Part shown: positions 1,173 to 34,455 of the stretch, piece after piece | Position numbering within the stretch: the stretch's first letter is position 1 | How the letters are laid out: every line of letters starts with the position of its first letter | NCBI GenBank assembly: GCA_043813445.1 | Contig: JBDRLD010000063.1 | Span: 1-42,116 of the forward strand | Direction of reading: 5' to 3' | Length of the DNA stretch: 42,116 bases | From: Candidatus Uhrbacteria bacterium | Lineage (GTDB): Bacteria; Patescibacteriota; Patescibacteriia; JACPHY01 | Made by a program: the position numbers and the translations under genes | The notes under the pieces: generated by a model | What the model saw: only the letters and a program-made list of their open reading frames with translations | What the model was told of the DNA's origin: nothing | Database searches by the model: none

Positions 1173-1240
1173 GATATGCGGGTGAGGGGAATCCTCGCCT
1201 GAGGCGAGTGCGCCTATGGCGCAGAACCTTCTGATGTCAG

Positions 1241-8162: not shown

Positions 8163-8906
8163 CTAGGTTCGATTCTGCGTTTTCTTAAGCTCCTCGACCG
8201 TTAGCGTATCGCTGATTATATACTGTCCCACGCGGGTGCGTTCTAGTGCAGATAGGTAGCCGCCGACGCCGAGCTGCTCACCAATATCACGTGCGAGCGA
8301 GCGGATGTAGGTGCCGGGTCCGCAGACGACGCGGAGTATGAGTTGAGAGTTGAGAGTGGATAGTTGATAGTTGAGGAGCTCAATCTCCTTAATTTCGACC
8401 TCGCGCGGCTCCATCTGTATGTCCTCACCCTTCCGCATGCGGCGGTGTGCCGGCTTGCCTTTGATTTTGATTGCGCTGTACTTTGGAGGGACTTGTTGGA
8501 TGTGGCCGATGAATTGTTGGAGTATAGGTAGTACTTCTTGGAGCGTTGGAGGTAACCACCCCCCCTCGCCCCCCCACCGAGAAGGATTGGGGGAATCTAT
8601 TTTTTTCTCCCCCACCCACCGGGAGGGGGAGTTAGAGGGGGTGGGGGTGACGGTTCCCTCCGCATCATCCGTGTCAGAGGTTGCACCGAGTGTGATGGTG
8701 GCGATGTACTCCTTTTCCTTTGCGACAATACCCGCGAGCTGTTTGGTTGCGTCGCGGCCAATACCAATAACAAGCACGCCGCTTGCCATGGGATCGAGTG
8801 TTCCCGCATGACCAACACGCCGCTCGCCGGTGATGCGGCGCACGGCGTTGACGATATCGTGCGAGGTCGGCCCCTTCGGTTTGTTGATGGCAACGATGTT
8901 GTCCAT
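8163..8906 (-). CDS. truB: tRNA pseudouridine(55) synthase TruB
   Basis: KPKGPTSHDIV and catalytic GHAGTLDPMASGVL motifs, plus C-terminal GTYIRSLARD. Contains two repeat-derived in-frame insertions. Confidence 0.9.
   Translation of the reverse strand: MDNIVAINKPKGPTSHDIVNAVRRITGERRVGHAGTLDPMASGVLVIGIGRDATKQLAGIVAKEKEYIATITLGATSDTDDAEGTVTPTPSNSPSRWVGEKKIDSPNPSRWGGEGGWLPPTLQEVLPILQQFIGHIQQVPPKYSAIKIKGKPAHRRMRKGEDIQMEPREVEIKEIELLNYQLSTLNSQLILRVVCGPGTYIRSLARDIGEQLGVGGYLSALERTRVGQYIISDTLTVEELKKTQNRT
8341..8376. repeat. heptamer array AGTTGAG/AGTTGAT (5 units) inside truB
   Basis: AGTTGAG AGTTGAG AGTGGAT AGTTGAT AGTTGAG. The same family occurs at 17183-17216, 32486-32510 and 33696-33726. Confidence 0.8.
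8555..8648. repeat. GC-rich palindromic element (two inverted units) inside truB
   Basis: ACCCCCCCTCGCCCCCCC...GGGGGAA, a short T-rich spacer, then CTCCCCCACCCACCGGGAGGGGGAGTTAGAGGGGGT. Related units occur at 29821-29882, 33348-33467 and 34157-34195. Confidence 0.75.
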
Positions 8907-11548: not shown

Positions 11549-11623
11549 TGGTGCCGAGGGGCGGAATCGAACCGCCGACACGAGGCTCTTCAGGCCCCTG
11601 CTCTACCCCTGAGCTACCTCGGC
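11549..11623 (-). tRNA. tRNA-Phe (anticodon GAA), CCA encoded
   Basis: Acceptor GCCGAGG/CCTCGGC, anticodon loop CTGAAGA, T arm GGCGG-TTCGATT-CCGCC, 3' ACCA. Confidence 0.9.
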
Positions 11624-11745
11624 ACGAGCTGAGAGTCGCATGCGACGAGTGAGGTCAGCAATCGCGACGCAGAGGCGACATCGAGCTCGCTCGAATGGCG
11701 CGTCTGTGGCGTGATTGCGCGAACGTTTCGTTCGCATATGACCGA

Positions 11746-11908
11746 ACGAGGAACCGAGGTATCAAGCGTACTCGCGCAGATACTGAGCGGGGACACCAAG
11801 CTCGCATTCACCCATCCCCTTCGACTCCACTCCGTTTCGCTCAGGGAGTAACGGTGTACGAGGAACCGAGGTATCAAGCGTACTCGCGCAGATACTGAGC
11901 GGGGACAC
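11746..11908. repeat. 51-nt direct repeat pair (11746-11796 and 11858-11908)
   Basis: ACGAGGAACCGAGGTATCAAGCGTACTCGCGCAGATACTGAGCGGGGACAC occurs twice, identical, 112 nt apart, in the tRNA-Ile/tRNA-Phe spacer. Confidence 0.85.
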
Positions 11909-11932
11909 AAAGTCTATCTCATTCACTGCAGG

Positions 11933-12009
11933 TGGTGGGCGCACCAAGATTCGAACTTGGGACCTCTGCCTTATCAGGGCAGCGCTCTAACCAACTGAGC
12001 TATGCGCCC
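11933..12009 (-). tRNA. tRNA-Ile (anticodon GAT), CCA encoded
   Basis: Acceptor GGGCGCA/TGCGCCC, anticodon arm CTGCC-CTGATAA-GGCAG, T arm CCAAG-TTCGAAT-CTTGG. Confidence 0.9.
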
Positions 12010-12070
12010 GTCATCTGGAGTGGATGGATTGTGAACGAACAAGCCTACAGCATCGCTGTAGCTCAGGGAG

Positions 12071-12099
12071 AGCATAACACGGGTGGGTGAGCTGCGCAA
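12071..12099 (-). promoter_or_regulatory. promoter TTGCGC-N17-TATGCT for the tRNA-Ile/tRNA-Phe unit
   Basis: Minus-strand hexamers at 12094-12099 and 12071-12076 with a 17-nt spacer. Confidence 0.45.
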
Positions 12100-12100
12100 G

Positions 12101-12139
12101 AACACCAAACGCCCCGGCAGAGCCAGGGCGTTTGGTGTT
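12101..12139 (-). terminator. hairpin terminator after CDS 12154..13074
   Basis: AACACCAAACGCCC...GGGCGTTTGGTGTT long stem immediately downstream of the stop. Confidence 0.55.
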
Positions 12140-12153
12140 GTGGCCTGTGGTGA

Positions 12154-13074
12154 TTACTCGGTAGATCGAATGGAGAGTTGCGGGTCTTGATCGATGAGGC
12201 GCTCGGCAGTACGCCGTGCGAAATCGGGCGGGAGTGTTTCCTTGCGGTGCTGCCAGATTTCTCTCATGAGGTCCGTAGCGATGCGATTCACAACTCCCCC
12301 AAGTTCTGGGTGTTGCAACTTCCACACACCCTTGGCGTCGAGGACGCCGAGTTCGGTACATCGCTGTGCGAAGGCTTTTTCGTTTTTGGTGCGTACGTAG
12401 AGCTCCTGCTGAATGAATGTTGGAGCATAGTACCCAGGCTCGCTTGGAGTATCGTGCGATTTGGTTACATCGTCTAGGAGGACTTCCGTTGCGTGCTCTG
12501 GATGAATATACGCATTTGCCGCGCGAACGGCCTTGCGCTCCAGCGCTACGCGTTCTTCACGCAATACTTGCTCCGGCTTTCCGGCACGCTCCTGTTCGTA
12601 CGCGAGGATTGCTTCCTTCATCTCCTCCGCGAGGTAGTCCTTCAATTCTTCATCATGCACGTCGATATTCAACACGTGACGATGTGGATTCGACTCCGGA
12701 TCCCAACGACGCCCCTCTTTAACGACTTGCGCATCCTCTAGCATGCTCACAGTGTTGTCGTCGCCCTCATTGTTTGCGCGATCGGCCGCGCGCTGCAGGA
12801 GCGCGACAGTTGCGCGTTCCGTAGCTTCGTGCACGTGTTTCAATTGAAGGTCGCCCAGATCGAGTGATTCGACGTCGAGTGCATTTGCCTGAGTCAGGTC
12901 TCCAAGCGCTCCCTCAAGTGAGATCCGGTCTCGCTTCCAGCGGCGCTCAGAAATGATGTGCGCCGCTTCCCCCTGTGTGCCAGCTTGTTGTTCGATTTCG
13001 TCTGGCGGTAGTGAATCTTCCGGTCCGGATTCCTTCCACCACTGTGATTCTGTGACTGCCATAGATTGCTCCAT
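12154..13074 (-). CDS. hypothetical acidic protein
   Basis: 306-aa ORF with its own promoter and terminator, lying between the 16S rRNA gene and tRNA-Ile. No family recognised. Confidence 0.6.
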   Translation of the reverse strand: MEQSMAVTESQWWKESGPEDSLPPDEIEQQAGTQGEAAHIISERRWKRDRISLEGALGDLTQANALDVESLDLGDLQLKHVHEATERATVALLQRAADRANNEGDDNTVSMLEDAQVVKEGRRWDPESNPHRHVLNIDVHDEELKDYLAEEMKEAILAYEQERAGKPEQVLREERVALERKAVRAANAYIHPEHATEVLLDDVTKSHDTPSEPGYYAPTFIQQELYVRTKNEKAFAQRCTELGVLDAKGVWKLQHPELGGVVNRIATDLMREIWQHRKETLPPDFARRTAERLIDQDPQLSIRSTE

Positions 13075-13096
13075 TTTGATGACGACACTTAGTTTG

Positions 13097-13125
13097 AGTA
13101 TAGATATTCATGGGATCATACGCAA
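13097..13125 (-). promoter_or_regulatory. promoter TTGCGT-N17-TATACT
   Basis: Minus-strand hexamers at 13120-13125 and 13097-13102, upstream of the ATG at 13074. Confidence 0.45.
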
Positions 13126-13131
13126 ACGCAA

Positions 13132-13161
13132 CAGCCCACCCTTCGTATGAAGGGTGGGCTG
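13132..13161 (-). terminator. hairpin terminator downstream of the 16S rRNA
   Basis: 13-bp stem CAGCCCACCCTTC / GAAGGGTGGGCTG with loop GTAT. Confidence 0.55.
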
Positions 13162-13188
13162 GTTGCTTGCAGAAAAAGGTACAACAAC

Positions 13189-13217
13189 CGTTATCTATCT
13201 GAAGAGTGGTAGGTAAG
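13189..13217 (-). other. 16S trailer half of the rRNA processing stem
   Basis: CGTTATCTATCTGAAGAGTGGTAGGTAAG is complementary to leader 14906-14929 (CTTACCACTCTTCAGTTGATAACG). Confidence 0.6.
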
Positions 13218-13306
13218 CCCGACTTCGGCATCCCCGAAGGGTACCGATCGACCTGGAGTGTCTTTACTTCAATCATTTCTGATCTCAGCGCAGAATGAAC
13301 TCCTAG

Positions 13307-14791
<1,485 letters not shown>

Positions 14792-29739: not shown

Positions 29740-29909
29740 GTCATTGCGAGTAAGGCGAAGCCGAGCGCGGCAATCCCGTTGTAAGTGAACCGGATCGCCA
29801 CCCGCCACAAGCTTCGCACGCCACCCCCTCGTACTCCCCCTCCCGCACTGCGGCGGACTCGGAAGCTAGAAGAGGGGGAGGCCAGCGCGAGGATGCGACT
29901 CGCGATGAC
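29740..29909. mobile_element. MITE-like 170-bp element with 12-bp terminal inverted repeats
   Basis: The TIRs are GTCATTGCGAGT (29740-29751) and ACTCGCGATGAC (29898-29909), matching at 11 of 12 positions. The core 29821-29882 carries the GC-rich unit ACCCCCTCGTACTCCCCC...GGGGGAG, also found inside truB, tsaD and tsaE. Confidence 0.4.
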
Positions 29910-29988: not shown

Positions 29989-31596
29989 ATGAGTCGAATC
30001 GAAGAGCTTCAGCGTGAGATCGAATCGCTGGAGCCGCCTGCGGACTTCGGCGATCTCGTACGGCGCGCGCTTGCAACGCGCAAGGACGTGGCACCTGAGG
30101 AGGTGTGTACGGATCATGCAGCACCATGCGCGGAGTGCGAAGCGTATTCGTTGACCGCGATCAGGTCGAGTACAGACAAAGATTGGGGTGTGATGCGCGA
30201 TTCGGCGTGGCTGTCCTGCGCCAAGAACATCCTTCTAACGTACGCCGGTGTTGGCGTGTGTGCGGCGACGGCGTTGTTTGGAAGCGGTTTATCCCCGCTG
30301 CTCTACACCCTCGGCATGGTCGTCGGTGGTGTGTCCGCACTCGTCGGCGGATGGAGAAGGAATCGCGACCACAATCGTGTAAACGGAGTAAAAGGATCAC
30401 CTGTCCAAGCGGGGTTCTTTTGCGGGGGATTCACGATCGTGAATCTCCTCGCGCCGATCTGGTTCTGGTACCGGCCGATCTGTCTCGGGCTGCACAAGCT
30501 CGGGCATGGCTGGCAGCGGGTGAAGGCGTGGTTCAAGCGGCGGTTCGTGGACGACTGCGACGAGTGCCGGAAGTGGCGCATGCAGGCGGGCGGGAAGGAA
30601 CAATTCGGTCTGAAGCTGCTCACTGGCCTGCTCGTGAATGGCGGTGTGATGATGATGTTGACATGTCTGGCTACAGGTCTGATTTTGGGGATGAGCGAGA
30701 ATAGCGTCGATGTTTACTCCTTGATCTTTTCGCTCGGAACCTTGACAGCATTCATCGGGATTTTCATCGGAATAAAATGTGGTGTCGATTGCACGATGGC
30801 CATGATGGCGCCGTGGCGAGCATTGCGCCACCTCATCCGTTCCTGCTTCGGCCTGCGATACGTGTTCCATCGACACCTGCACGAGCGATCGGCTGCGAAA
30901 GAGATCGACACCATCGCGGCGCGACTGCAGAGCGAGGTGAGCGATGAGGATCTCCGGGTGCTCATTCGGCAGTACCTCAGCGATGAGCTGATCTGCGCCA
31001 CGCGCGATCGCCTAATCGGCGACGACAGCACGTACGCGCGGCTGGCCGCGGCTACCGCGCAGTACATCGCGCGCGCCAAGATGCGGCTCGAGCAGTACGC
31101 GGCATTCGAAGCGAGCGAGGACCCGGTGATCCGCGAGCAGAGTGCGCAGCTCAGCAGCAGCGTCGAGCAGTTCCTTGGCGAGAACGAAGCGTGTCGGCAG
31201 GTGCTCGAGGAGTACCGCGCAATGGTCGCCGCGAAGTTTGCCGAGCTCGAAGCGCAGATCGGAAACGTGGACGAGCGCATGCAGTTCCTCGCGATCGCTC
31301 GCGATACGGACGCGTTGCTCGCCGACGGCAAGGATCACGCGCGACTCGTGCGCGAGGCCGTCGTCTCGCTGACGTGCGAGCTTTTCCGGGCCACCGCGGC
31401 CATCCGAGCGGCCATCGACGCCGCGCTCGCGCGTGCGAAGAGCGAGACCGAAGTGGAAGTCGCAGCGGCTTCGAACGAAGTGCTCGCGTTCGCCGTGCTA
31501 CGCAACACAGCGCAGCACCTGCGCGGCAGCATGGACAATGCCCCAGCCGAGGCCGAGCAGCGCCCCGCGCCCCAGGCCCAGCCCGTGGCGCAGTAG
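29989..31596 (+). CDS. hypothetical polytopic membrane protein with Cys motifs and C-terminal coiled-coil domain
   Basis: ATG 29989 has GAAGGAG upstream. There are about six TM helices between aa 75 and 300, the motifs CTDHAAPCAECE and DDCDECRKW, and an alpha-helical Ala/Glu/Arg-rich C-terminal half. Confidence 0.6.
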   Translation: MSRIEELQREIESLEPPADFGDLVRRALATRKDVAPEEVCTDHAAPCAECEAYSLTAIRSSTDKDWGVMRDSAWLSCAKNILLTYAGVGVCAATALFGSGLSPLLYTLGMVVGGVSALVGGWRRNRDHNRVNGVKGSPVQAGFFCGGFTIVNLLAPIWFWYRPICLGLHKLGHGWQRVKAWFKRRFVDDCDECRKWRMQAGGKEQFGLKLLTGLLVNGGVMMMLTCLATGLILGMSENSVDVYSLIFSLGTLTAFIGIFIGIKCGVDCTMAMMAPWRALRHLIRSCFGLRYVFHRHLHERSAAKEIDTIAARLQSEVSDEDLRVLIRQYLSDELICATRDRLIGDDSTYARLAAATAQYIARAKMRLEQYAAFEASEDPVIREQSAQLSSSVEQFLGENEACRQVLEEYRAMVAAKFAELEAQIGNVDERMQFLAIARDTDALLADGKDHARLVREAVVSLTCELFRATAAIRAAIDAALARAKSETEVEVAAASNEVLAFAVLRNTAQHLRGSMDNAPAEAEQRPAPQAQPVAQ

Positions 31597-31637
31597 GCAC
31601 CTCGACGACCAAGCGCAACACCGACCATGGAGAGGAC

Positions 31638-31982
31638 ATGACCAAAACAGTATACCTCCTCGCACGACTGAACATCACCGGTCCCGTGCCGGTGGTGAGC
31701 GAGGTATTGATTTCGTGGAATCACCCGGCGGAGATGATCGAGGTAAGTCGTGGTTCTTTCTACGTAATCGTCTGGTCGATTGACAGCAAGGATGCGCCGG
31801 ATGCATTCGATCGCCTACGCCGTATCGTGTTCGAACGTAATGATCTCGCGTGGGCGCGGCCGTACCTCGAGGAAGAGGGTGAAGTACCGGAAGTAGTGGC
31901 GTTGCGCCATCGGTGCCTCAGCTCCACGGCCAAGCACCTCGTTGCGGTGGCGCGCTCGTTCCTTGAGTGTGTAAATCTGTAG
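31638..31982 (+). CDS. hypothetical protein
   Basis: ATG 31638 has GGAGAGG upstream. 114 aa. The upstream Arg-rich part of ORF 31191..31982 overlaps the previous gene and is rejected. Confidence 0.55.
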   Translation: MTKTVYLLARLNITGPVPVVSEVLISWNHPAEMIEVSRGSFYVIVWSIDSKDAPDAFDRLRRIVFERNDLAWARPYLEEEGEVPEVVALRHRCLSSTAKHLVAVARSFLECVNL

Positions 31983-32012
31983 CGCAAGCGCAGCGCGATC
32001 AGACAAATCAGG

Positions 32013-32047
32013 ACGACCCCTACTCACATGGGGGTCGTTTCATTTTT
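32013..32047 (+). terminator. intrinsic terminator
   Basis: ACGACCCC...GGGGTCGT followed by TTCATTTTT. Confidence 0.6.
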
Positions 32048-32050
32048 CAC

Positions 32051-32095
32051 CAATAGCAAAAGCTCCCCATGCGAGATGGGGAGCTTTTGCTATTG
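32051..32095. terminator. perfect 20-bp-stem palindrome abutting the tRNA-Glu 3' end
   Basis: CAATAGCAAAAGCTCCCCAT-GCGAG-ATGGGGAGCTTTTGCTATTG. Confidence 0.5.
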
Positions 32096-32165
32096 ACCCC
32101 ACCGGGAATCGAACCCGGATTTCAAGGATGAAAACCTTGCGTCCTGACCACTAGACGATGGGGCC
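32094..32165 (-). tRNA. tRNA-Glu (anticodon TTC)
   Basis: Acceptor GGCCCCA/TGGGGTC (one G-U pair), D arm TCGTCTAGTGGTCAGGAC, anticodon arm CAAGG-TTTTCAT-CCTTG, T arm CCGGG-TTCGATT-CCCGG. Confidence 0.85.
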
Positions 32166-32475
32166 GGAGTACGTACCCTCCTTTAAAGCCTTTCGAAGCA
32201 TTCCAGAGTTTTTAATAAGACGTTCTCGTTGCAGCGCTTCCTTTTTTGTGTCGTGTTCTTCCTGGTAGATGAGCGTATATGGGCGATGTGGTTTTGTCGA
32301 TTGAACTTTTCCTGCATTGTGTTCTCGAAGACGACGGGCGACATCATTTGTTTCCCCGATGTAAAGTGTTTTATTGGAGACGCTCTGTAGTACGTACACG
32401 AAATTCAACATAGGTGCGTCTCAGGCGTAGCCTGACCCGGCTACGCCGGGCTGACCACTAGACGATGGGGCCGGA
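32144..32475 (-). mobile_element. GIY-YIG gene cassette flanked by a 25-bp direct repeat of the tRNA-Glu 5' end
   Basis: CTGACCACTAGACGATGGGGCCGGA occurs at 32144-32168 and 32451-32475 (identical). It corresponds to tRNA positions -3 to +22. GC content between the repeats is lower than in the flanks. Confidence 0.5.
32151..32411 (-). CDS. GIY-YIG nuclease family protein
   Basis: 86 aa. FVYVLQS...LYIGETNDVARRLREHN is the GIY-YIG core, and a conserved E occurs in ALQRERLIK. The last 5 codons and the TAG stop lie inside tRNA-Glu. Confidence 0.8.
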   Translation of the reverse strand: MLNFVYVLQSVSNKTLYIGETNDVARRLREHNAGKVQSTKPHRPYTLIYQEEHDTKKEALQRERLIKNSGMLRKALKEGTYSGPIV

Positions 32476-32560
32476 AGAGTTGACAAGTTGAGAATGGATA
32501 GTTGATAGTTGCAGGACAGGCACAGGAACAGCAAACCACATACAATACACTACGTCAATC

Positions 32561-33841
32561 ATGGTAGCATGGTCGTACATGGGAGAGAAACAGACCATTC
32601 GCGTTCTCGGAATTGAGTCGTCATGCGATGAAACCGCGGCGGCCATTGTTCATGTTGCACGAACAAGGGATCGCGGGCGTTGGCGGTATGCGTTTGACGT
32701 GCGGTCGAATGTTGTTGCATCGCAGGTGAAGACGCACGCGAAGTACGGAGGCGTCGTTCCGGAAATCGCGGCACGCGCACATGTGGAGGCCATTATTCCG
32801 GTCATCGATGAGGCGGTTGGGCTACGGAAGTTCGACGCGGTTGCGGTGACGTCCGGGCCTGGTCTCGTCACATCGCTTGCGGTGGGCGTGGAGACTGCAC
32901 GGACCATCGCGTTCGCGCGTCAGCTCCCGGTCATCGGGGTGAATCATATTGAGGGTCATATCCTCTCTGCCCTACTCAAGCCAGGCAGAGAGGAACAAGG
33001 AACAGGAAATAGAAGACAAGAAACTCAGCACGTTCCCATGTCCCATGTCTCTTATCCCATGTTCCCTACAGTTTGTCTCGTCGTCTCAGGCGGTCATACC
33101 GAGCTGCTGCTGATGCGGGGATGGGGGAAGTACGAGCTGATTGGCGCGACACGGGATGATGCGGTTGGTGAAGCGTTCGATAAGGTGGCAAAGCTGCTCG
33201 GCCTCGGGTATCCGGGCGGGCCAATCGTATCGCAGCGTGCGGCGCAGGGCGATGCAGCGGCGTTTGATCTTCCGCGACCGATGATGGATTCGGATGACTT
33301 TGATTTTTCGTTCTCTGGGTTGAAGACTGCGGTGCGTTACATGATTTCTCCACCTCCTGCGAGGAGGGGGAGAGTAAGAGGGGGTCGTGCGCGAGCAGTC
33401 ATCTCTGAGCGTAATCGAATCGTCAACAATACCACCCCCTCTCACTCCCCCTGCGGGGCAAGGGGAGAACCGTCCGAGGCGGAAGGGGGGGAACAAGTTG
33501 GGACGCCCAAACGCCGGAAAGAGGTCTCCGATATCTGCGCGAGCTTCCAGCAAGCGGCTGTCGATGTGCTCGTGGCGAAGACGGTGCGCGCGGCGCGGGA
33601 GTTTGGCGCGAAGGCCGTGCTGCTTGGTGGGGGCGTGGCGGCGAATACGCAACTCCGTCATCAACTCGGCAATGCGCTGCAGCAAGAGATACCAGCTATC
33701 ACCTATCACCTATCAACTATCAATTACTGCGGTGATAACGCGGCCATGATCGCCGCGGCAGGTGGTGTGCGGCTCCTCTCGGGACAGCAGACGCCATGGA
33801 AACGACTTGATGTAAATCCGAATTGGGAGTTAGGGAGGTAA
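32561..33841 (+). CDS. tsaD: tRNA N6-adenosine threonylcarbamoyltransferase TsaD
   Basis: Motifs VLGIESSCDETAAA, YGGVVPEIAARAH, NHIEGH, VSGGHTEL, FSFSGLKT and GDNAAMIA. An alternative start lies at 32579. Three repeat-derived insertions are present. Confidence 0.9.
   Translation: MVAWSYMGEKQTIRVLGIESSCDETAAAIVHVARTRDRGRWRYAFDVRSNVVASQVKTHAKYGGVVPEIAARAHVEAIIPVIDEAVGLRKFDAVAVTSGPGLVTSLAVGVETARTIAFARQLPVIGVNHIEGHILSALLKPGREEQGTGNRRQETQHVPMSHVSYPMFPTVCLVVSGGHTELLLMRGWGKYELIGATRDDAVGEAFDKVAKLLGLGYPGGPIVSQRAAQGDAAAFDLPRPMMDSDDFDFSFSGLKTAVRYMISPPPARRGRVRGGRARAVISERNRIVNNTTPSHSPCGARGEPSEAEGGEQVGTPKRRKEVSDICASFQQAAVDVLVAKTVRAAREFGAKAVLLGGGVAANTQLRHQLGNALQQEIPAITYHLSTINYCGDNAAMIAAAGGVRLLSGQQTPWKRLDVNPNWELGR
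32982..33067. repeat. inverted heptamer arrays (GGAACAN / ATGTCCC) inside tsaD
   Basis: AGAGGAA CAAGGAA CAGGAAA TAGAAGA CAAGAAA ... CGTTCCC ATGTCCC ATGTCTC TTATCCC ATGTTCC. Confidence 0.75.
33348..33467. repeat. two inverted GC-rich units inside tsaD
   Basis: CTCCACCTCCTGCGAGGAGGGGGAGAGTAAGAGGGGGT (33348-33385) and its approximate reverse complement ACCCCCTCTCACTCCCCCTGCGGGGCAAGGGGAG (33434-33467). Confidence 0.75.
33696..33726. repeat. heptamer array (AGTTGAT family, reverse orientation) inside tsaD
   Basis: GCTATCA CCTATCA CCTATCA ACTATCA ATT is the reverse complement of the AGTTGAT/AGGTGAT units. Confidence 0.75.
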
Positions 33842-33903: not shown

Positions 33904-34455
33904 ATGAAAGAGAAATACACGAGCCACAGCGAAGAGGAGACTATGCGGATCGCGGCAACGCTTGCGGCCGAGCTTCATGGTGGCGAGGTGGTGCTGCTCG
34001 AGGGGGAGCTTGGTGCGGGGAAGTCTGTGTTTGTTCGTGGGCTCGCGCACGCGCTCGGTGTCACGCACCGCATGCCAAGCCCCACCTTTGTGCTTATGCG
34101 CGTGTACGGAATGAAACAGACGGAGAATAGAGAACAGAGAACAAAGAATCGGATCCCCACCCCCTCTCACTCCCCCTCCCGGCGGGAGGAGGAGAAAAGA
34201 AAGTGTTCCATGTCCACCAGCCATTCCTTCGCTCAGTCGCTTCGTTATTTCATCCACGTCGACGCGTACCGTGTGAACGACGCGCAGGAGCTTGATGCAA
34301 TCGGCCTACGCGAGTGGCTTGGCCGTGAAGATGCGATTGTCGCCATCGAGTGGGGCGAGCGTGTAGCACCGACATTACGCGACATACGTATTATCCAAGT
34401 CCTCCTGTCCATTGGACGCACGGCGGAAATGCGGAGCATTCACATCGTGCGGTAA
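33904..34455 (+). CDS. tsaE: tRNA threonylcarbamoyladenosine biosynthesis ATPase TsaE
   Basis: P-loop LEGELGAGKSVFVRG, SPTFVL and HVDAYR motifs. Carries an insertion of about 40 aa made of repeat DNA. Confidence 0.85.
   Translation: MKEKYTSHSEEETMRIAATLAAELHGGEVVLLEGELGAGKSVFVRGLAHALGVTHRMPSPTFVLMRVYGMKQTENREQRTKNRIPTPSHSPSRREEEKRKCSMSTSHSFAQSLRYFIHVDAYRVNDAQELDAIGLREWLGREDAIVAIEWGERVAPTLRDIRIIQVLLSIGRTAEMRSIHIVR
34117..34230. repeat. composite repeat element inside tsaE (heptamer arms flanking a GC-rich unit)
   Basis: CAGACGG AGAATAG AGAACAG AGAACAA AGAATCG, then ACCCCCTCTCACTCCCCCTCCCGGCGGGAGGAGGAG, then GTGTTCC ATGTCCA CCAGCCA. Confidence 0.75.

Follow-up and report, generated by a model that had tools for sequence, protein, structure and literature searches.

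A short GIY-YIG nuclease gene and a palindromic hairpin between two copies of a tRNA-Glu segment: a candidate mobile cassette of bacterial tRNA genes

The DNA considered here is a stretch of 42,116 nucleotides from a Candidatus Uhrbacteria bacterium (contig JBDRLD010000063.1 of assembly GCA_043813445.1), which at its full length we call the window, and within it we have tried to understand one small place: a tRNA-Glu gene that appears to have been split, and at the same time rebuilt, around a very short gene for a GIY-YIG nuclease. The intact tRNA-Glu(UUC) lies on the minus strand at 32094-32165, where both ARAGORN and the Rfam family RF00005 (65.5 bits, full length) place it. A 25-mer, CTGACCACTAGACGATGGGGCCGGA, which on the tRNA strand runs from position -3 to position +22 of this tRNA, occurs exactly twice in the whole window: at 32144-32168, where it supplies the start of the functional tRNA, and again, as an exact repeat on the same strand, at 32451-32475. 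A third copy is absent from the window even at three mismatches, and shuffles give an expectation of zero. The two copies are 282 nt apart, and the content of that spacing is only a GIY-YIG open reading frame (ORF) and a 30-nt palindrome that we call the double-hairpin element (DH). Following the tRNA strand, one meets the upstream 25-mer; then the DH (32421-32450), which sits between tRNA positions 22 and 23; then GACGCA (32415-32420), which, when the upstream region is aligned to the tRNA with gaps, corresponds to positions 23-28 resuming after the interruption; then CCT; and then the ATG of the ORF (32151-32411, minus strand), which encodes 86 aa. The ORF does not stop before the second 25-mer begins. 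Its final codons, TCC GGC CCC ATC GTC TAG (SGPIV and the stop), lie inside the repeat, with the TAG (32151-32153) falling on tRNA positions 13-15. On the other side, divergent from all of this and useful as a synteny anchor, is tsaD (32561-33841, plus strand; Pfam TsaD, E=2e-82). The body of the ORF is 43.6% GC, against 58.5% for tsaD and 64% for positions 31000-32000.

An earlier annotation of this DNA, made from its letters without any database search (the sequence-only reading), had already described much of this, and its description stands. The pairing of the two 25-mers on tRNA-Glu -3 to +22 is upheld by the repeat search, ARAGORN and Rfam; the 86-aa GIY-YIG gene is indeed the one ORF of any size that the copies enclose, and it is lower in GC than its flanks; the SGPIV end and its TAG are encoded by the 5' part of the intact tRNA; and the upstream copy is followed by a hairpin and then by GACGCA as the continuation of the tRNA.

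The protein itself leaves little doubt about its family. It matches Pfam PF01541 over residues 4-68 with E=1.3e-17 and 64.2 bits (the cut-off is 22.6), it has Y6 in the conserved motif (FVYVL), and Y17, G19, R27, E30, H31, N32 and E63 are invariant in our clade alignment A1. The ATG at 32411 is fixed by an in-frame TGA four codons upstream, which rules out a longer ORF with an earlier start. The closest solved structures are 1zg2 (BH0048; 1.4e-5) and 1ywl (EF2693; 1.1e-4), both of the UPF0213 type, which Dunin-Horkawicz et al. (PMC1564403) place in a stand-alone prokaryotic, here bacterial, Slx1-like branch, a GIY-YIG variant that is minimal and has no auxiliary domains; eukaryotic Slx1, in the same account, is a structure-specific nuclease. 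There is nothing else in the 86 residues: the sole other Pfam match, T5orf172, overlaps residues 4-68, and neither Pfam nor the structure matches found a module that could bind a long specific DNA target, only the catalytic core. The nuclease ORF is autonomous, lying outside any intron or intein, and it is the only GIY-YIG ORF that the window holds. The usual companions of mobile DNA were also sought. No integrase or recombinase lies in or beside the 307-bp insert, no transposase family matched, the repeat search found no inverted repeats that would join one end of the insert to the other, and tRNA is the only Rfam match in 32000-32600 at gathering and permissive thresholds alike, leaving no ribozyme or intron there. 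Searches against phage proteins and PHROG gave weak GIY-YIG matches only (phrog_5123, E=5.5e-5), and we set aside the idea of a plain phage gene.

Which of the two 25-mers belongs to the original gene? For a test by synteny we turned to the closest database relatives of TsaD, only about 55% identical to the protein of the window, three of which lie on long contigs with the local gene order kept (L208, L209 and L210). In each of the three, an uninterrupted tRNA-Glu(UUC) runs divergently to tsaD, its 5' end being 88, 73 and 84 nt, respectively, from the tsaD start, and each lacks both the GIY-YIG ORF and the repeat at this site; the TsaD homologues P0021, P0025 and P0028 retain the divergent tRNA-Glu beside tsaD, with no cassette. 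In the window, the distance from +1 of the upstream fragment (32472) to the tsaD ATG (32561) is 89 nt, and because this matches the distance in the relatives, we take the upstream 25-mer to be the tRNA gene's native 5' part, still where it always was. The empty sites that the sequence-only reading had proposed to look for are thus to be found, in distant relatives, and its view of the upstream copy as a decayed 5' part of the original gene agrees with their spacing. As we read the comparison, some 307 bp have been inserted into the tRNA-Glu gene, parting a native 5' fragment from the rest, and an intact tRNA-Glu survives because a second copy of -3 to +22 is fused to the remainder of the tRNA. 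Recombination between the two 25-mers would, by the same token, recreate the exact sequence of the empty site and leave no scar.

The palindrome deserves as much attention as the gene. On the tRNA strand the DH of the window reads CCCGGCgtaGCCGGG TCAGGCtacGCCTGA (32421-32450), and folding it as DNA gives a pair of 6-bp hairpins (-11.9 kcal/mol, z=-3.5). The loops of this pair are complementary, which allows a 9-bp stem to form instead, and this is the RNA centroid; the 9-bp stem of the sequence-only reading therefore exists as an alternative fold, but the best DNA fold is the pair of 6-bp hairpins. Perfect double hairpins of the 6-3-6 form number two in the 42-kb window, against a shuffle mean of 0.16, and both sit in tRNA fragments. 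The second (1194-1223, 30 nt) lies in the T-loop of a 3' pseudo-copy of tRNA-Gly(UCC) with no nuclease ORF. The pseudo-copy (1177-1230, minus strand; 12/12 pairs in its DH-type element) stands just downstream of the intact tRNA-Gly (1241-1312) and includes a 14-nt exact copy of its 3' end at 1177-1190, and its minus strand runs …AAGGTTC, then TGCGCCATAGGCGCA CTCGCCTCAGGCGAG, then GATTCCCCTCACCCGCA. Two further matches to CCGGCNNNGCCGG in the window (22439 and 28207) are single matches in GC-rich coding DNA and not DHs.

The same DH occurs at the same tRNA site in L002, L131, L137, L152, L159 and L172, and L087 carries at site 22/23 another insert, GC-rich and 61 nt long. The copy in L002, CCCGGCGGAGCCGGGTCCGGCTCCGCCGGA, has an identical tRNA position and differs from that of the window at four nucleotides, which make up two compensatory pairs (8/23 and 18/28). 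The DHs of L007 and L008 are the reverse complement of the L002 DH with one mismatch, and they are identical to each other at 30 of 30 positions, while the accompanying ORFs are 70% identical as DNA and the tRNA sites are 15/16 and 35/36. The DH is better conserved than the ORF. Neither the DH nor the leader matches an Rfam family at gathering or permissive thresholds.

A scan of metagenomes with the pattern CCCGGCNNNGCCGGGTCNGGCNNNGCCNGA found at least 120 loci with at least 128 copies of the DH, and the figures that follow refer to the 128 copies (118 of them distinct) that were listed. A GIY-YIG ORF lies within 100 nt of 26 of the 128, and for most of these a tRNA-Glu lies about 250 nt away where the contig is long enough; a tRNA lies within 500 nt of 36; and some 70% of the copies are solo. 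Stop-free frames of at least 600 nt contain 39 of the 118 distinct copies, and almost all of these 39 are read as PGGAGSGSAG or, in the opposite orientation, SGGAGPGSAG. The solo DH, in other words, appears to be tolerated in proteins as an in-frame linker insertion. The consensus of the flanks is (T)G before the DH and AA after it (L102, L127 and L129 are examples, among loci L088-L207), and the pair 18/28 is C-G in 103 of the listed copies, A-T in 6 and T-A in 1.

Two easier explanations of these copies were tried and rejected. With the DH excised in silico, ARAGORN recovered a full tRNA in 0 of 128 copies, and the hairpin-bearing copies are therefore truly partial rather than genes with an intron-like interruption. 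Three apparent CRISPR arrays, in L109 (3351-3514), L142 (8-104) and L147 (13446-13542), are DH repeats with a 67-nt period at contig ends, and we call them tandem repeats, not CRISPR, because their 37-nt intervals are near-identical. Nor did the notion that the hairpin is an insertion marking the decay of the old gene half survive: it is a conserved 30-nt DH at the cassette's leading end, and it also occurs widely as a solo repeat.

The nearest kin of the nuclease show the same arrangement. The best homologues of the protein (53-66% identity, from Patescibacteria metagenomes) have in common a layout in which a partial 5' copy of tRNA-Glu is followed by one or more GC hairpins, a few tRNA nucleotides, the ORF and an intact tRNA-Glu that holds the ORF's stop. 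L001-L003 carry it at tRNA-Glu CUC with a 26-nt repeat, L005/L006 and L008 at tRNA-Glu UUC with a 35-nt repeat, L007 at tRNA-Glu CUC, and L087 at tRNA-Glu UUC with a 22-nt repeat and site 22/23. The flanks of these loci are mutually unrelated, and 26 metagenomic loci have the same architecture. Inside this one clade the insertion points are 15/16 (L007), 21/22 (L123 and L157), 22/23 and 35/36 (L005 and L008). The ORF ends within the tRNA use two different frames, …GPIV* and …APSSIG*, and the C-terminal tail is therefore a by-product of tight packing and not a conserved peptide.

Two of these loci are more elaborate. In L119 (3372-3818 of FLOH01000012.1, 976 kb), hairpin-interrupted copies of tRNA-Glu (positions 1-35, DH, positions 36-42) stand both before and after the ORF, and an intact tRNA-Glu follows; a single compensatory pair distinguishes the two DHs, a sign that a second, independent DH may have entered the same tRNA position, and the contig also holds a solo DH (L103). 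In L008 (2421-2976), the intact tRNA-Glu lies between a 5' pseudo-copy (1-35, DH, 36-40, then the ORF) and a 3' pseudo-copy (28-35, DH, 36-76 and the trailer). The annotated 107-aa protein of L008, P0003, begins inside the hairpin, and its true start is probably the internal MFYVYV. As a separate matter, L001 (1361-4267) has a phage-type integrase, an HTH protein and a Prim-Pol gene directly downstream of its cassette-bearing tRNA-Glu(CUC), and here a conventional integrative element appears to use the 3' side of the tRNA and the GIY-YIG cassette its 5' side.

The family reaches well beyond tRNA-Glu. We scanned the GTDB species representatives with the clade alignment and obtained 487 relatives, of which the best 80 loci, with 96 GIY-YIG ORFs in them, were analysed; these 80 span Patescibacteria, Bacteroidota, Ignavibacteriota, Omnitrophota, Planctomycetota, Marinimicrobia and others. 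A tRNA gene lies within 300 nt of 67 of the 96 ORFs, on the same strand in 67 of 67 cases, with 37 of the ORFs upstream of the tRNA and 30 downstream, and 15 isotypes are represented (the same cassette beside other tRNAs being what the sequence-only reading had suggested one should seek). Of 48 pairs of nearest-neighbour proteins, 26 share an isotype, where 5.9 would be expected and the highest count among 2000 permutations was 15; switches of isotype also exist, such as Ser vs Asp at 82% protein identity. Where the ORF precedes the tRNA, 30 of 31 loci have before the ORF a stretch that copies part of the downstream tRNA: a short GC-rich palindrome breaks into one of its loops, and beyond the palindrome the copy goes on with more tRNA nucleotides; the interruption in the 31 loci is mostly in the D-arm (positions 8-24) and sometimes in the anticodon loop (35) or T-loop (55). 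A 20-nt palindrome, CCTGCCTGCCGGCAGGCAGG, turns up repeatedly, in various phyla and at various tRNAs, and tandem cassettes or arrays of tRNA fragments occur in L024, L041, L071, L013, L027, L067, L075 and L119. The duplication of a 5' end, which had been thought an oddity, is nothing of the kind: versions on the 5' side and on the 3' side are both common across phyla.

One pair of loci bears on the mobility of the unit. L050 lies directly after a tRNA-Ser (GGA) and L086 directly after a tRNA-Asp, and the two share a block that extends from the 3' end of the tRNA to the stop of the ORF. Within it, identity is 96% (73/76) for the double-hairpin region and 78% for the ORF; the tRNAs, at 53%, and the downstream flank, at 36%, are not homologous. 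This pattern shows hairpin and ORF travelling as one unit between different tRNA genes. When the unit comes to rest after a tRNA, no duplication is needed, and when it comes to rest inside one, a duplicated segment restores the gene.

Where did that duplicated segment come from? The sequence-only reading had the cassette restore the tRNA with its own copy of the 5' segment, and this is now doubtful, because in most lineages the two copies are identical for 2-8 nt upstream of +1. The left edge of the identical stretch, taken lineage by lineage, is at -3, -4, -3, -2, -6, -3, -5, -8 and so on, clustering between -1 and -8; extension beyond +1 is far above chance frequency across independent lineages, and the right end lies in a tRNA loop. 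Since the duplicated segment thus includes nucleotides of the host's leader, a duplication of the host's own segment, resembling a target-site duplication, fits better than the import of a foreign 5' end, and we would favor it on these edges. An alternative description is that a unit carrying a hairpin-interrupted piece of tRNA recombines with the chromosomal tRNA and crosses over on the side that keeps the gene whole, and this description yields the 5'-side layout and the 3'-side layout of L008, L071 and L089 alike. In the window, a perfect 25-nt direct repeat flanks the insert, yet the upstream copy resumes past the hairpin, and the boundaries are ambiguous.

What, then, put these base pairs into a tRNA gene, and how did the tRNA outlive the event? 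We consider it rather probable, though well short of certain, that the locus is a selfish cassette of about 307 bp, a hairpin and a nuclease, that targets tRNA genes and preserves the tRNA through target duplication. The ORF would be expressed from the tRNA's own promoter, within the pre-tRNA leader, and cleavage by RNase P at +1 would part the ORF from its stop codon and so keep the output of nuclease low. The nuclease, in this proposal, probably recognizes the structure of DNA and not its sequence; we propose this because the protein has no DNA-binding module, because the sites are at stem-loop boundaries in many tRNAs and because the palindromic partner is constant. Candidate substrates would be the cloverleaf or hairpin folds of tRNA genes and a cruciform of the DH, and cuts might fall at stem-loop junctions, that is, at the D-loop, the anticodon loop and the T-loop. 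The break could then be repaired by copying the hairpin+ORF unit, with tRNA sequence as the homology.

Several observations pull the other way. The empty sites come from distant relatives only (TsaD about 55% identical), and no near-isogenic allele was found: the first 61 nt of the tRNA-Glu, searched exactly against metagenome contigs, gave 0 matches. The intact tRNA, once regenerated, would still carry any target internal to the tRNA, a difficulty for immunity of the occupied allele, and it is the fragment copy that the DH disrupts. The promoter scan gave a promoter on the tsaD side only and none that is convincing on the tRNA strand upstream of the fragment. L009 has the overlap of ORF into tRNA with no upstream fragment and no hairpin. 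Cleavage of DNA by the 86-aa protein is putative, and so is its substrate. Finally, the metagenomes contain hairpin-interrupted tRNA copies that stand beside intact tRNAs and have no ORF—L089 (Ser), L150 (Val), L155/L183 (Arg), L124 (Lys) and L121 (Ala)—and the hairpin may be the primary actor.

A larger claim, which we hold tentatively and would not yet bet on, is that a minimal GIY-YIG enzyme and its cognate hairpin constitute an unrecognized, structure-guided mobile system of bacteria. The enzyme, lacking a DNA-binding domain, would cut DNA that is branched or folded into hairpins, both the cloverleaves of tRNA genes and the cruciform of its own double hairpin; a master hairpin+ORF unit would thereby move into tRNA genes, which a target duplication preserves, and solo 30-nt hairpins would spread genome-wide, including as in-frame Gly/Ser/Ala/Pro linkers. 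Were this so, the system would be a bacterial counterpart of the GC clusters and GIY-YIG ORFs of mitochondria and a functional analogue of REP/RAYT built on a different enzyme.

The proposals that compete with the selfish, tRNA-preserving cassette have to be given their due. One is classical, sequence-specific homing, in which the nuclease cuts alleles of tRNA-Glu that are free of the cassette and double-strand break repair copies the cassette in, together with its own tRNA 5' segment. The clade closest to the window is wholly in tRNA-Glu genes, site 22/23 recurs in at least eight independent contexts, nearest-neighbour proteins tend toward the same isotype, and phage SegB is a tRNA-linked GIY-YIG homing enzyme (PMC13096335), all of which speaks for homing. 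Against this, an 86-aa protein without a DNA-binding module is an odd homing endonuclease, the insertion rebuilds an intact target, the sites vary within the clade (15/16, 21/22, 22/23 and 35/36), the repeats contain 2-8 nt of host leader, and close proteins sit at different tRNAs (the Ser and Asp pair at 82% identity). Measured against a free-standing homing endonuclease gene, the cassette has the intron-free ORF and the pattern of presence and absence, and it lacks the DNA-binding module. We regard homing in this strict sense as unlikely. The sequence-only reading had called the element a mobile, homing-type cassette in a tRNA gene, and part of that holds, namely the insertion and a mobile nuclease clade in many unrelated contexts; sequence-specific homing is a poor fit to the bare catalytic core, the regenerated target and the varied sites.

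Another competitor puts the hairpin first. The palindrome would itself be the mobile element, invading tRNA loops and other sites, with the viable hits in tRNAs being those accompanied by a partial duplication, and the GIY-YIG protein would be a mobilizer acting in trans from a master copy (as with REP/RAYT) or a mere passenger. Here, the large solo share of the DHs (about 70% of the 128 listed) and the 39 of 118 distinct copies in long open frames speak for it, as do the ORF-less, DH-interrupted tRNA copies of L089, L150, L155, L124, L121 and the tRNA-Gly of the window, the second DH of L119 (a compensatory variant at the same tRNA position) and the presence of both solo and cassette DHs on one 976-kb contig. 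However, a GIY-YIG ORF lies no more than 100 nt from 26 of the 128 listed copies, many more than chance would give, and the hairpin+ORF unit moves as a block; we regard the hairpin as primary mobile element as improbable.

Could the gene simply work for its host? On this proposal, small GIY-YIG proteins are tRNA-linked housekeeping or defence factors that are co-transcribed with tRNAs and act, for example, on tRNA or other RNA, and the fragments are by-products. UPF0213 proteins are widespread, the ORF is strictly co-oriented with its tRNAs, and a prokaryotic Slx1-like domain has been found fused to a TrmH-like tRNA Gm18 methyltransferase (PMC1564403). But the ORF is missing from syntenic relatives, it is multi-copy or tandem in some genomes, has 15 tRNA partners and is low in GC, and gene fragments and palindromes always accompany it; we consider a host function very improbable. 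The remnant of an integrase island, a group I intron or an assembly artefact can be rejected and is effectively refuted, even though integrating elements often attach at tRNA genes and repeats may mislead assemblers: no integrase or recombinase is in or beside the 307-bp insert and the duplicated part is the 5' end, there is no Rfam match besides tRNA and a contiguous intact tRNA is present, and the same layout occurs in more than 30 independent assemblies.

How does the proposed selfish cassette compare with what is already known? The closest characterized system is SegB, likewise an intron-free GIY-YIG gene beside tRNA genes of many isotypes. The SegB protein comes from phage and has about 220 aa, among them a DNA-binding region, whereas the protein of the window is a chromosomal catalytic domain of 86 aa from the UPF0213/Slx1-like branch, and neither a palindromic hairpin partner nor a stable split-and-regenerated tRNA is known for SegB. 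The phage enzyme, a homing endonuclease of the free-standing kind, co-localizes with tRNA genes of many isotypes (the tRNA cluster of T4/T6), and the 3' end of segB shares microhomology with the 5' region of tRNAs, allowing recombination and amplification (PMC13096335, where Brok-Volchanskaya 2008 is cited).

Other likenesses are partial. In short palindromes of mitochondria one sees mobile, GC-rich sequences of one or two hairpins, in genomes that also have GIY-YIG ORFs, but these are organellar, and a tRNA-targeted unit of hairpin and nuclease has not been described among them, whereas here hairpin and ORF are conserved together. Paquin, Laforest and Lang reportedly described, in 1994, the case of Allomyces atp6 among the free-standing mobile GIY-YIG ORFs of fungal mitochondria that duplicate part of the gene they invade; there, the nuclease ORF reportedly sits at an essential gene's end, a portion of that gene is duplicated, and a functional copy persists while a dead fragment is left. 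The target in Allomyces is an organelle protein gene and the duplicated part is 3', in contrast to the bacterial tRNA gene, the 5' part and the ORF fused to the tRNA start that we find here. Palindromic elements of Rickettsia, some 100-150 bp long and found in one lineage, are tolerated in frame inside protein genes, as are the solo DH copies, and we know of no nuclease associated with them. The integrative elements that target tRNAs by means of tyrosine integrases also leave a direct repeat of part of the tRNA flanking the insert and the tRNA intact; here, an integrase is lacking, the insert measures 0.3 kb and not kilobases, the duplicated part is 5' and not 3', and a palindrome stands at the junction. 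REP elements with their RAYT transposases (PMC3733652) resemble the DH, at its 120 or more loci, in being many short palindromes of which few adjoin a small nuclease-type gene, but a RAYT is an HUH/Y1 enzyme flanked by inverted REPs, and the present enzyme is a GIY-YIG nuclease, usually with one hairpin upstream and at a tRNA site. The mitochondrial sequences meant here are GC clusters, double-hairpin elements and repetitive elements that form hairpins (PMC4478555; PMC2800124; Paquin 2000, cited in PMC3787672).

The cassette differs from every one of these systems in being chromosomal and bacterial, with a minimal Slx1-like enzyme, a hairpin+ORF unit and a tRNA that is split and rebuilt. A published description of bacterial hairpin+GIY-YIG cassettes in tRNA genes was not found in a search whose coverage of subscription journals is incomplete, so that a prior description is possible.

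If the selfish-cassette proposal is true, it would provide a role for the stand-alone Slx1-like (UPF0213) GIY-YIG proteins, a large family with solved structures and no assigned function, of which the present branch, at least, would drive a compact selfish element inside tRNA genes. It would explain the partial tRNA genes that confuse annotation, the GC-rich palindromes beside tRNAs and the 10-residue Gly/Ser-rich inserts in proteins of Patescibacteria, and it would extend the link to tRNAs recently shown for phage SegB to the chromosomes of bacteria from many phyla. It would also offer a testable case in which a target is chosen by DNA structure over sequence, and an instance of an essential single-copy gene being invaded without an intron and rebuilt by target duplication.

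A few observations concern the surroundings. Immediately 3' of the tRNA-Glu is a perfect 20-bp inverted repeat (32051-32095, from the repeat search), probably a terminator or processing hairpin that is common to the convergent gene. TsaD in the window is 426 aa long, against about 340 in many homologues, and has lineage-specific inserts; several of its best relatives are extended likewise. A distinct dispersed repeat, CCCCCTCTCACTCCCCC, has five copies in the window at up to two mismatches, with 0 expected: 33368-33388 and 33432-33457 in tsaD, where they form an inverted pair 42 nt apart, 34157-34182 in a tsaE-like ORF, and 8625-8641 and 29824-29840. The tsaD and tsaE-like copies encode TPSHSP, and the repeat looks like another in-frame insertion element. 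Elsewhere, positions 11549-14790 hold a 16S rRNA gene (13307-14790, minus strand), followed by a 306-aa ORF (12154-13074), a tRNA-Ile, two direct repeats of about 50 nt (around 11750-11910) and a tRNA-Phe; no 23S rRNA gene adjoins the 16S, and the rRNA locus is therefore unlinked or interrupted.

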